Sequence record: PQ657803.1
From: Klebsiella phage Roth37
Reading direction: 5' to 3' (one strand)
Length of the DNA stretch: 64,000 nucleotides
In this document: positions 756 through 1,144 of the stretch, one piece after another
Layout: every line of letters starts with the position of its first letter
Numbering within the stretch: position 1 is the stretch's first letter
The notes under the pieces: generated by a model
What the model was told of the DNA's origin: nothing
Database searches by the model: none
The model's input: the letters and a program-made list of their open reading frames with translations, nothing else
Program-made: the position numbers and the translations under genes

Positions 756-890
756 TGGAAGTATCAGTTGGATTCGAACCAACGCACCGGCTAACCTAGA
801 GATCACCAGACGTTTCCAAGTCTGCTCACTAACGGCCAGCTGCTTTACCGTGAGCTTTAGGACTATTCAGCTCCATAAGCTATTGATACT
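756..890 (-). ncRNA. 135-nt tRNA-like RNA with encoded CCA, perfect 7-bp acceptor helix and canonical T-arm but non-canonical core
   Basis: +760-766 agtatca pairs perfectly with +884-890 tgatact. T-arm is gttgg-attcgaa-ccaac at 767-783. tttgg 3'-end context is shared with the bona fide tRNAs. Anticodon-like arm CAGAC/GTCTG carries an 8-nt loop. Confidence 0.4.
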
Positions 891-897
891 ATTAATT

Positions 898-975
898 TGG
901 TGCAACCGGTTCGATTTGAACGAACGACCCCTGGACTTTCAAACCAGTGCTCTCACCTCGCTGAGCTACAGTTGC
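898..975 (-). tRNA. tRNA-Phe (anticodon GAA), CCA encoded
   Basis: Hand fold: acceptor GCAACTG/CGGTTGC, D-stem GCTC/GAGC, anticodon loop TTGAAAG, T-arm GTTCG-TTCAAAT-CGAAC. Confidence 0.65.
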
Positions 976-1056
976 GTAATTCGTGCCTGCTCCTTTGAAT
1001 CAAGAAGTCCACCCCGGTCTTTGGGTCTTTGCAGTACATCACGCTGCTCTGATGTT

Positions 1057-1144
1057 TGGTGGAACTTGGGAGACTACGTGCTACTCCCCTCACAGACCGG
1101 GATTCCCCGCTATCTATGATGCTTAACCGATTAGCTGAAGTCCC
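1057..1144 (-). ncRNA. 88-nt tRNA-like RNA (acceptor and D-arm tRNA-like, T-arm with 11-nt loop, no recognisable anticodon arm)
   Basis: CCA (rc tgg 1057-1059) with tttgg context. Acceptor GGGACTT/AAGTTCC closes with one G-U. GGGAG/CTCCC stem carries an 11-nt loop in the T-arm position. Confidence 0.35.

Follow-up and report, generated by a model that had tools for sequence, protein, structure and literature searches.

Two conserved, probably nondecoding tRNA-like RNAs in the tRNA gene array of Klebsiella phage Roth37

We analyzed a stretch of 64,000 nucleotides (nt) from Klebsiella phage Roth37 (PQ657803.1), referred to as the window here, and focused on two elements in its tRNA gene array that an initial annotation had described as tRNA-like RNAs on either side of tRNA-Phe. 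We call them A (135 nt) and B (88 nt). Positions 600 to 1300 of the window are 100% identical to Klebsiella phage Sugarland (MG459987.2; Demerecviridae, Sugarlandvirus), a T5-like phage, with window position 1 corresponding to position 32369 of that record. ARAGORN identified 21 tRNA genes in the window, all of them on the minus strand. A and B are also read from this strand, which means that the positions initially given for them hold but the strand had to be corrected. In the order of transcription, the locus consists of tRNA-Lys, 6 nt, B, 81 nt, tRNA-Phe, 7 nt, and A. The two elements and their parts are as follows.

756-890 (read 890 to 756), minus strand: element A, a 135-nt tRNA-like RNA gene, based on sequence, fold, alignment A1, and covariance model R2 (164 bits)
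884-890, minus strand: 5' acceptor strand of A, AGUAUCA, pairing with 760-766 in a perfect helix of 7 base pairs (bp)
842-880, minus strand: enlarged D-like arm of A, with base helix GCUU/AAGC, an upper helix, and a 12-nt loop (857-868) that contains an invariant GUCCUA
790-840, minus strand: enlarged arm of A at the anticodon position, with outer helix GCUGGCC/GGUUAGC and an inner 5-bp hairpin (807-824)
767-783, minus strand: T arm of A, GUUGG-UUCGAAU-CCAAC, its five pairs formed in every copy and one of them showing a compensatory change
756-766, minus strand: 3' end of A, with acceptor strand UGAUACU (760-766), discriminator U (759), and encoded CCA (756-758)
1057-1144 (read 1144 to 1057), minus strand: element B, an 88-nt tRNA-like RNA gene with a tRNA-Ala-type acceptor end, based on fold, alignment A6, and covariance model R1 (112 bits)
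1138-1144, minus strand: 5' acceptor strand of B, GGGACUU, with G3 at 1142
1121-1135, minus strand: D arm of B, GCU-AAUCGGUUA-AGC, with GG in the loop, nearly invariant between lineages
1090-1119, minus strand: arm of B at the anticodon position, a 12-bp interrupted helix with a GAAU tetraloop and no anticodon loop
1068-1088, minus strand: T arm of B, GGGAG/CUCCC, with the 11-nt loop UAGCACGUAGU (1073-1083)
1057-1067, minus strand: 3' end of B, with AAGUUCC (U70 at 1063), discriminator A73 (1060), and encoded CCA (1057-1059)

Results

Detection of A and B as tRNA-like genes

The view that neither element is an ordinary or intron-containing tRNA agrees with the searches. Across the whole window, ARAGORN called neither A nor B as a tRNA, and its search for transfer-messenger RNA (tmRNA) reported none. 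A scored 21.2 bits against the Rfam tRNA model (RF00005), below the gathering score of 29, and B gave no match to this model in the 421-nt stretch searched, even at an E value of ≤10. A scan of the minus strand of the first 12 kb for the module of a 7-bp acceptor, a 5-bp T stem, and NCCA retrieved 21 distinct 3' ends, compared with a mean of 0.33 in the 300 shuffles used as control. Beyond the called tRNAs, the matches were A, B, and an element at positions 9158 to 9235. Since the z-scores of the single-sequence folds are weak (-1.5 for A and -2.8 for B), the case for the two elements rests on covariation and comparison.

With canonical tRNAs (RF00005), A and B share the cloverleaf topology, the 7-bp acceptor stem (including its covariation), the discriminator, and the 3' CCA. 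The perfect terminal helix, encoded CCA, and canonical T arm (a 5-bp stem and a 7-nt UUCRANY loop) that had been noted for A are all found in its sequence. Its interior had been described as about 60 nt too long, and A is 59 nt longer than a 76-nt tRNA, with an 8-nt loop on a 5-bp stem. For B, the acceptor-like terminal helix (GGGACUU/AAGUUCC, followed by A and CCA) is likewise present, as is the 11-nt T loop, which differs from the canonical one; its D arm is of the canonical type. In neither element is there, at the canonical distance from the junction, a 7-nt loop on a 5-bp anticodon stem, and both differ from tRNAs in the length of the arm at this position. The initial annotation had B lacking this arm altogether, but only the anticodon loop is absent: the position is occupied by the 12-bp interrupted helix capped by GAAU.

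Structure and conservation of A

Ten distinct copies of A were aligned with MAFFT without use of structure (alignment A1), and their RNAalifold consensus contains 37 pairs in six helices, with 96.8% of the cells paired and 11 pairs double-changed. None of 500 column shuffles matched the observed score, and sliding the partners by 1 to 3 columns gave only 0 to 1 double-changed pairs. Three of the seven acceptor pairs are double-changed (5:68, 6:67, and 7:66, with UA/CG, CG/AU, and AU/GC, respectively), helices 2 and 3 contain two such pairs each, and helices 4 and 5 are also backed by double changes. Judging from this covariation, A is a cloverleaf-like four-way junction made of the acceptor, a D-like arm (positions 11 to 49 of A), an arm at the anticodon position (51 to 101), and the T arm.

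The Rfam tRNA alignment places AGCUCACGGUAAAGCA (A positions 35 to 50, the 3' strand of the D-like arm) as the D arm, and A looks like a tRNA with two insertions, one of ∼27 nt on the 5' side of the D arm and one of ∼34 nt inside the anticodon arm. The 5' insertion pairs with the old D-arm strand, as indicated by the changes of G20-C37 to A-U, U14-A46 to C-G, and G11-C49 to A-U. The first two of these contradict a simple AGCU/AGCU D stem, which we had considered, and favor a long hairpin. The inner hairpin of the second enlarged arm carries an invariant 8-nt loop, UUGGAAAC (812-819), which is similar to the anticodon loop of tRNA-Phe (UUGAAAG) apart from one additional G but sits atop an extra 7-bp helix and an internal loop, far beyond the anticodon position. 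The motif CUUGGAAACG is unchanged in all 10 A sequences, including the divergent one of Proteus phage PM135 (see Discussion). In the acceptor, A has U3-A70 and no conserved aminoacylation identity set, and its discriminator is U, A, or C, depending on the copy.

Structure and conservation of B

For B, 13 distinct sequences from six lineages were compared (alignment A6). The consensus contains 27 pairs, with 96.8% of the cells paired and 11 pairs double-changed, in an alignment that is biased towards the model structure through having been fitted to it; the covariation of the acceptor stem is anchored at the termini and is independent of this fitting. G1-C72, G2-C71, G3.U70, U7-A66, A73, and CCA are unchanged in all 13 sequences, while the three pairs between them, 4:69, 5:68, and 6:67, are swapped for other Watson-Crick pairs across lineages. 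Together with the double-changed acceptor pairs of A, this bears out the expectation that the paired termini are conserved in related phages. The 11-nt T loop (UA-N-CACGUAGU) is invariant apart from the third position, where A, G, or U occurs. At the anticodon position, 8 of the 12 pairs are double-changed, and the arm varies between 20 and 30 nt in length, with GAAU, UACUUC, or UUGAAUC as its loop. The acceptor, T, and D parts are thus fixed while the middle arm varies, suggesting that the constrained part of B is its "top half." A pairing of the D and T loops (GUUA:UAAC) is possible, and its columns are almost invariant, with one wobble-compatible change and one break in Pectobacterium phage My1. 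From the compensatory substitutions that keep its helices, B, like A, is a cloverleaf-like four-way junction.

The invariant single-stranded motifs (GUCCUA and CUUGGAAACG in A, and the T and D loops in B) point to a constraint beyond the upkeep of helices. Overall, we are highly confident that A and B are real structured RNA genes. That they are not decoders, as initially proposed, is consistent with arms at the anticodon position that are too long in both and in B also variable in length, with a tetra-, hexa-, or heptaloop.

Alanine signature of B

Minihelices that carry G3.U70 are charged by alanyl-tRNA synthetase (AlaRS). Among the 21 tRNAs of the window, A, and B, this pair occurs only in tRNA-Ala and B. 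The identity set of bacterial tRNA-Ala consists of A73, G2-C71, G3.U70, G4-C69, and G20, with no contribution of the anticodon (PMC9976931). B shares the acceptor determinants of canonical tRNA-Ala: the major ones (G2-C71, G3.U70, and A73) are all present in all six lineages, whereas of the minor ones, G4-C69 occurs in 7 of the 13 homologs and G20 in My1 alone. Given that G3.U70 is kept while the three adjacent pairs are rewritten, there appears to be selection for the wobble itself. The invariance of the major determinants, combined with the charging of minihelices, leads to the prediction that the host AlaRS alanylates B, for which we consider the chances to be even.

Distribution of A and B

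A blastn search with A matched 64 phage records, comprising 61 Klebsiella phages (one of them spelled "Klebseilla"), phage Eos, and Proteus phage PM135 (two accessions); none of these 64 records annotates A as an RNA. Looking for a wider distribution, a single scan of metagenomes with a degenerate pattern retrieved three Sugarlandvirus-like contigs only. In Sugarland-type genomes A follows tRNA-Phe, and in Shiner-type Klebsiella phages it lies directly 5' of tRNA-Pro. Phage Kpn24-P2 lacks A with an exact boundary, tRNA-Phe-CCA|AATCC, continuing with the sequence that is found downstream of A in Sugarland.

B was found by blastn in about 90 to 100 records, from Klebsiella Sugarlandvirus, Salmonella and E. 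coli Epseptimavirus, a few Tequintavirus (Elw, NBSal003, OSYSP, and phage 5), and Pectobacterium phage My1. No matched record, including that of phage 5, annotates B as an RNA. Eos lacks B, again with an exact boundary (tRNA-Lys-CCA|AACATC), passing directly into the spacer that follows B in Sugarland. The covariance model R1, derived from seven gapless 88-nt copies of B, recovered all the copies known from blastn at 57 to 114 bits and, in addition, B in two N4-like Schitoviridae:

Salmonella phage As2, positions 1492-1571 of stretch L120: copy of B
Klebsiella phage MY01, positions 422-501 of stretch L123: copy of B

In As2, the insertion extends from G1 to one base past the CCA, with a terminator hairpin on one side and the 3' end of the virion RNA polymerase gene on the other; in the relatives SP-076 and S5, this site is uninterrupted (GGGGCUUUUCUUU|UAGUACAAAC). 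The MY01 copy of B occupies the corresponding position, likewise flanked by a terminator hairpin and the RNA polymerase gene. No tRNAs were found within the 3 kb examined around the As2 copy. These sequences indicate that B has crossed between two unrelated phage families, Demerecviridae and Schitoviridae, with shared enterobacterial hosts. The boundaries of the N4-like insertions equal the predicted ends of the mature RNA, and an RNA-mediated spread would fit them.

Pattern scans of IMG/VR for a wider distribution gave mostly chance matches or genomes that were already known. The scan of GTDB genomes gave one chance match, in a bacterial metagenome-assembled genome, and thus no sign of a bacterial origin. 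A comparison of regional conservation was confounded by the lack of A in Kpn24-P2 and by exchange of B alleles, and we did not use it as evidence of selection.

Transcription unit

The shared 3'-end context that the initial annotation had read from the placement in the tRNA array extends to both sides of the elements: the CCA-A(A/U) trailers and the leader gaps of A and B are like those of the adjacent tRNAs, and in most homologs the leader ends in U at position -1. The neighboring features are the following.

1151-1226, minus strand: tRNA-Lys(UUU), 6 nt upstream of B (ARAGORN; Rfam 68 bits)
898-975, minus strand: tRNA-Phe(GAA), 7 nt upstream of A (ARAGORN; Rfam 60.4 bits)
2355-2383 (read 2383 to 2355), minus strand: sigma-70-like promoter TTGCCT-17-TATAAT, promoter-scan score 10/12

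This promoter heads the unit tRNA-Asp ... tRNA-Lys, B, tRNA-Phe, A. The next minus-strand promoter with a score of 10/12 is at 510..482, and three weaker matches (9/12) lie in between, at 2082, 1456, and 1297. The promoter/terminator scan found no terminator-like site on the minus strand between the two promoters, and A and B are thus most simply placed within a tRNA-Asp ... tRNA-Phe precursor.

Conserved segments next to A and B

The 81-nt spacer between B and tRNA-Phe (976-1056, minus strand) is 98% conserved across Sugarlandvirus genomes. It is also present in Eos, a phage without B, with apparent compensatory changes, read from the sequences, in two hairpins (GCAG/CUGC to CGAG/CUCG and CUUCUU/AAGGAG to CUUCCU/AGGGAG). 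This spacer may be a further small RNA, freed by the flanking processing sites. Downstream of A, the noncoding segment at ∼520-755 (minus strand) contains conserved blocks, e.g., AAUAAGCCACCGAUUUCCGGCCGUUUGA ... AAAGUCCUCC, which are shared with Eos and with the Tequintavirus Elw, where they lie between the B homolog and rnaIV; there may be more conserved noncoding RNA in this segment. On the other side of the locus, the spacer between tRNA-Cys and tRNA-Lys is filled by an unannotated open reading frame (ORF) of 59 codons (MIKYKAFVTRESQ...; 1217-1396, minus strand) with a GAGG ribosome-binding site, whose stop overlaps the first bases of tRNA-Lys.

Relation to known tRNA-like RNAs

The closest comparison is offered by the tRNA gene regions of T5 (AY543070) and phage 5 (AJ604531), where rna1 (144 nt), rna2 (125 nt), and rna3 (73 nt) are annotated, as misc_RNA features, as "tRNA-like stable RNA with unknown functions"; the Pushchino annotations of these phages also list rnaI, rnaIII, rnaIV, rna2H, and rnaX. 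Like A and B, RNA1 to RNA3 lie in the tRNA gene region of a T5-like phage, on the tRNA strand, and combine an acceptor-like closing helix and a T arm with an oversized interior. RNA2 resembles A in its four-way junction with a long second arm but ends in ACA instead of CCA, and RNA1, RNA2, and RNA3 all differ from B in lacking the G3.U70/A73 set. The initial suggestion that A and B could be the small stable RNAs of T5 holds for the class and not for identity. In comparisons of A and B with RNA1 to RNA3, blastn-short yielded only T-loop words, and in the tRNA regions of T5 and phage 5, R1 and R2 retrieved only true tRNAs or weak matches (at most ∼28 bits). Homology to the annotated T5 RNAs was ruled out on these grounds, and T5 has neither A nor B.

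A homolog of T5 RNA2 does occur in Sugarland, just outside the window and directly after tRNA-Leu(UAA) (positions 462-584 of stretch L001, minus strand; MG459987.2 ∼31929-32051). Shiner-type phages have an A-type element in the position of this homolog instead, and the metagenome contigs L115 and L116 contain the RNA2 homolog, A, and tRNA-Pro in tandem.

In T4, which belongs to another phage family, RNAC (species 1, 139 nt) and RNAD (species 2, 119 nt) are small stable RNAs beside the tRNA cluster as well, with unknown roles (PMC3014915, PMC9697503). RNAC is nearly equal to A in size, and its canonical T arm (CCGGG-UUCGAAU-CCCGG) precedes a helix that resembles an acceptor, yet this closing helix contains U.U mismatches and there is no CCA. 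Homology to rnaC or rnaD was rejected, as R2 matched only tRNAs in T4. The tRNA-like domain of tmRNA (SsrA) shares with B the acceptor with G3.U70, A73, and CCA, a T arm, the lack of an anticodon, and alanylation, which for B is a prediction. In contrast to tmRNA, B has only 75 to 88 nt, a single hairpin in place of the mRNA-like domain, neither a tag reading frame nor pseudoknots, a full D arm, and the noncanonical 11-nt T loop.

Other tRNA-like sequences in the window

The third extra match of the module scan belongs to a 79-nt tRNA-like gene at 9157-9235 (minus strand; CGGGGCG ... GCGGG-UUCGAAU-CCUGC-CGCCUCG-G-CCA). It scores 33.3 bits with the Rfam tRNA model, above the gathering score, and was not called by ARAGORN; the alternatives are an atypical tRNA and a further tRNA-like RNA. 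At 10530-10630 (minus strand) there is a tRNA-like sequence with a type-II-style D arm (AAGUUAAUUGGUAGACUU) resembling that of T5 RNA1, a long middle hairpin, the T arm GCAGG-UUCGAAU-CCUGC, and no CCA, which R2 matches weakly (14.7 bits). Two copies of tRNA-Val(UAC), at 3916-3991 and 4490-4565 (both minus strand), score 39.7 and 59.8 bits with Rfam, respectively. The lower-scoring copy, whose T arm is degenerate (GCUGG-UGCAAAA-UCAGU), is probably a duplicate in decay. Apparent tRNA remnants are also found at 1791-1899 (minus strand), in the spacer that separates tRNA-Asn from tRNA-Tyr: an isolated T-arm-like hairpin (CCGGGUUCGAAUCCCGCG) together with D-arm-like pieces that are out of order.

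Discussion

We regard A and B as probably two nondecoding tRNA-like RNAs, each representing a new family within the class of phage tRNA-like stable RNAs. With an arm at the anticodon position that is overlong in A and freely variable in length in B, no anticodon could be placed in the ribosome. The host RNA polymerase would start at the promoter at 2383..2355 and transcribe both elements within the tRNA-Asp ... tRNA-Phe precursor. Their 5' ends would then be cut by RNase P, as hinted at by the 7-bp acceptor on a 5-bp T stem, the U at -1, and the 3' CCA; a 12-bp coaxial stack of acceptor and T stem together with a 3' CCA should suffice for this enzyme. Trimming of the 3' ends to the encoded CCA would free RNAs of 135 nt (A) and 88 nt (B). 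From the genomic context and tRNA biology, we infer that such tRNA-like processing of A and B is likely.

The weakest step is the function of the released RNAs. They would be accessory, exchangeable cargo instead of parts of the translation machinery, and, by mimicking tRNAs, might keep a tRNA-binding factor occupied or divert it in a phage-host conflict centered on tRNAs. We propose such a role as a decoy or mimic only tentatively and consider it doubtful. Less probable still is the more specific picture for B, in which an alanine-accepting mimic without an anticodon, moving as a cassette of the size of the mature RNA between Demerecviridae and N4-like Schitoviridae, would act in trans. It could do so either as a charged decoy or inhibitor of a host factor that recognizes the acceptor/elbow half of (alanyl-)tRNA or as a ribosome-independent donor of alanine. 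We also considered an antisense small RNA model and rejected it, since complements of the invariant loops of A and B were not above expectation in the 64-kb window, with only 1, 0, and 2 matches beyond the elements' own sequences.

Several observations weigh against the reading of A and B as processed, functional tRNA mimics. Regarding the individual elements, Shiner-type copies of A encode UCA instead of CCA, suggesting that an encoded CCA is not essential and that enzymatic addition could supply it. In B, the window copy lacks the minor alanine determinants, with A4-U69 and U20 in place of G4-C69 and G20, and the 11-nt T loop could impair recognition by RNase P, EF-Tu, or the C-terminal domain of AlaRS. 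The N4-like copies of B are located downstream of a terminator hairpin, making their expression doubtful. A T5 variant that lacks 30661-38625, including several of the T5 tRNA-like RNAs, is viable (PMC11464382), indicating that such RNAs are conditionally dispensable and any function of theirs conditional.

To these points belongs the PM135 copy of A, in which the interior is kept with compensatory changes but the ends cannot pair, leaving no acceptor helix. Over the T arm and 3' strand, this copy is identical to the 3' end of a tRNA-Pro that other Proteus phages, such as Stubb and RP7, retain intact, and within the 14 kb of the PM135 locus that were examined, ARAGORN found no tRNA-Pro. The copy is adjoined by a gene for an HNH homing endonuclease, and a second copy of the tRNA-Pro 3' end directly follows the endonuclease gene. 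Since A is adjacent to tRNA-Pro in Shiner-type phages, recombination between the two T arms would yield exactly such a chimera, and we treated PM135 as damaged. We accordingly rejected this copy as a disproof of the A acceptor helix: a chimera of A and tRNA-Pro explains it better, other Proteus phages having an intact tRNA-Pro. The chimeric gene itself (positions 1480-1645 of stretch L003) consists of 5' three-quarters of the A type followed by the tRNA-Pro T arm and 3' end.

The main rival is that A and B act in cis as processing punctuation, kept only as sites for RNase P and 3'-processing cuts in a long early transcript. The cuts would release or stabilize their neighbors (the 81-nt spacer, the downstream noncoding blocks, and the mRNAs of small ORFs), and the excised RNAs themselves would have no function in trans. 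The position of A and B in a polycistronic unit among tRNAs and small ORFs fits this idea, as do the conservation (98%) of the spacer that would be freed and the compensatory changes read for it in Eos. There is also precedent for tRNA-like processing signals, for example, in the t-elements of plant mitochondria (PMC1920247). However, a minihelix of acceptor and T arm would do for punctuation, leaving the invariant loops of A, the T and D loops of B, and the strict G3.U70 unexplained. Furthermore, B alone moved to the N4-like genomes, where nothing lies downstream on the same strand to be processed, and the presence of the spacer without B in Eos and of the downstream region without A in Kpn24-P2 shows that these neighbors are independent of A and B. 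We therefore consider punctuation unlikely.

A still less likely explanation is that both elements are selfish or hitchhiking cassettes without benefit to the phage, spread by recombination at the CCA and T arm, by gene conversion through homing endonucleases, or by an RNA intermediate. The exact presence/absence polymorphism of A and B, the two genomic positions of A, the HNH endonuclease gene beside the chimeric PM135 copy, and the N4-like insertion of B that starts at G1 and stops 1 nt past the CCA would all be expected from such elements, and homing endonuclease genes are frequent in the tRNA regions of T5 and T4. What mobility alone does not explain is the purifying selection on RNA structure and loops over six lineages; moreover, A and B encode no protein, and an endonuclease gene adjoins only a few copies.

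We consider it very improbable that A and B are decaying tRNA pseudogenes without function, for instance a tRNA-Phe-like duplicate with insertions. Their tRNA ancestry is suggested by the end-to-end alignment, at low scores, of both covariance models with true tRNAs, by the vestigial D arm of A, and by the likeness of UUGGAAAC to the tRNA-Phe loop, and degenerate tRNA pieces such as the weaker tRNA-Val do occur elsewhere in the window. Decay is at odds with 11 compensatory pairs and more than 96% pairing in each family, with the invariant loops, and with the retention of these elements in Sugarlandvirus, Epseptimavirus, Tequintavirus, My1, and two Schitoviridae.

Even less probable would be unusual but genuine decoders, with A, for example, containing an intron or reading quadruplets (anticodon GGAA) or B accepting alanine with GAA-type anticodons. 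The 8-nt loop of A, on its 5-bp stem, does fit Y-U-NNNN-R-N, and a 7-nt loop, UUGAAUC, is found in B of My1, but the A hairpin stands on an extra 7-bp helix and internal loop past the anticodon position, its covariation contradicts a simple D stem with an intron, the arm of B is conserved in neither length nor loop, and ARAGORN, which allows for introns in the anticodon loop, makes no call. Finally, protein coding on the opposite strand can practically be dismissed: "hypothetical protein" coding sequences cover the A and B positions in many GenBank records, e.g., CPT_Sugarland_076 (window 678-794, plus strand), and there is a plus-strand ORF of 123 amino acids at 748-1119, yet this frame passes through tRNA-Phe in antisense and is interrupted in FZ41 (longest open stretch, 51 codons), CPT_Sugarland_076 extends over a cassette boundary that Kpn24-P2 lacks, and the substitutions are compensatory at the RNA level, so that we regard the plus-strand ORFs over A and B as artefacts.

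Extra small stable RNAs of phage tRNA clusters, such as RNAC and RNAD of T4 and RNA1 to RNA3 of T5, have been known since the 1970s. The class itself is thus not new; what is new here is the alanine signature of B and its spread across phage families. For annotation, this means that ∼60 to 100 GenBank phage records either omit A or B or have, in their place, spurious ORFs on the opposite strand that are labeled "hypothetical protein." The two families provide clean comparative material, with well-supported structures and invariant loops that hint at recognition surfaces, and their exact presence/absence cassettes amount to natural "knock-outs" in close relatives, namely, Eos for B and Kpn24-P2 for A. 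The tRNA-Lys of T5 counters PARIS, and phage tRNAs act against tRNA-cleaving defenses (PMC11464382), which makes nondecoding mimics from these arrays obvious candidates for a similar role.

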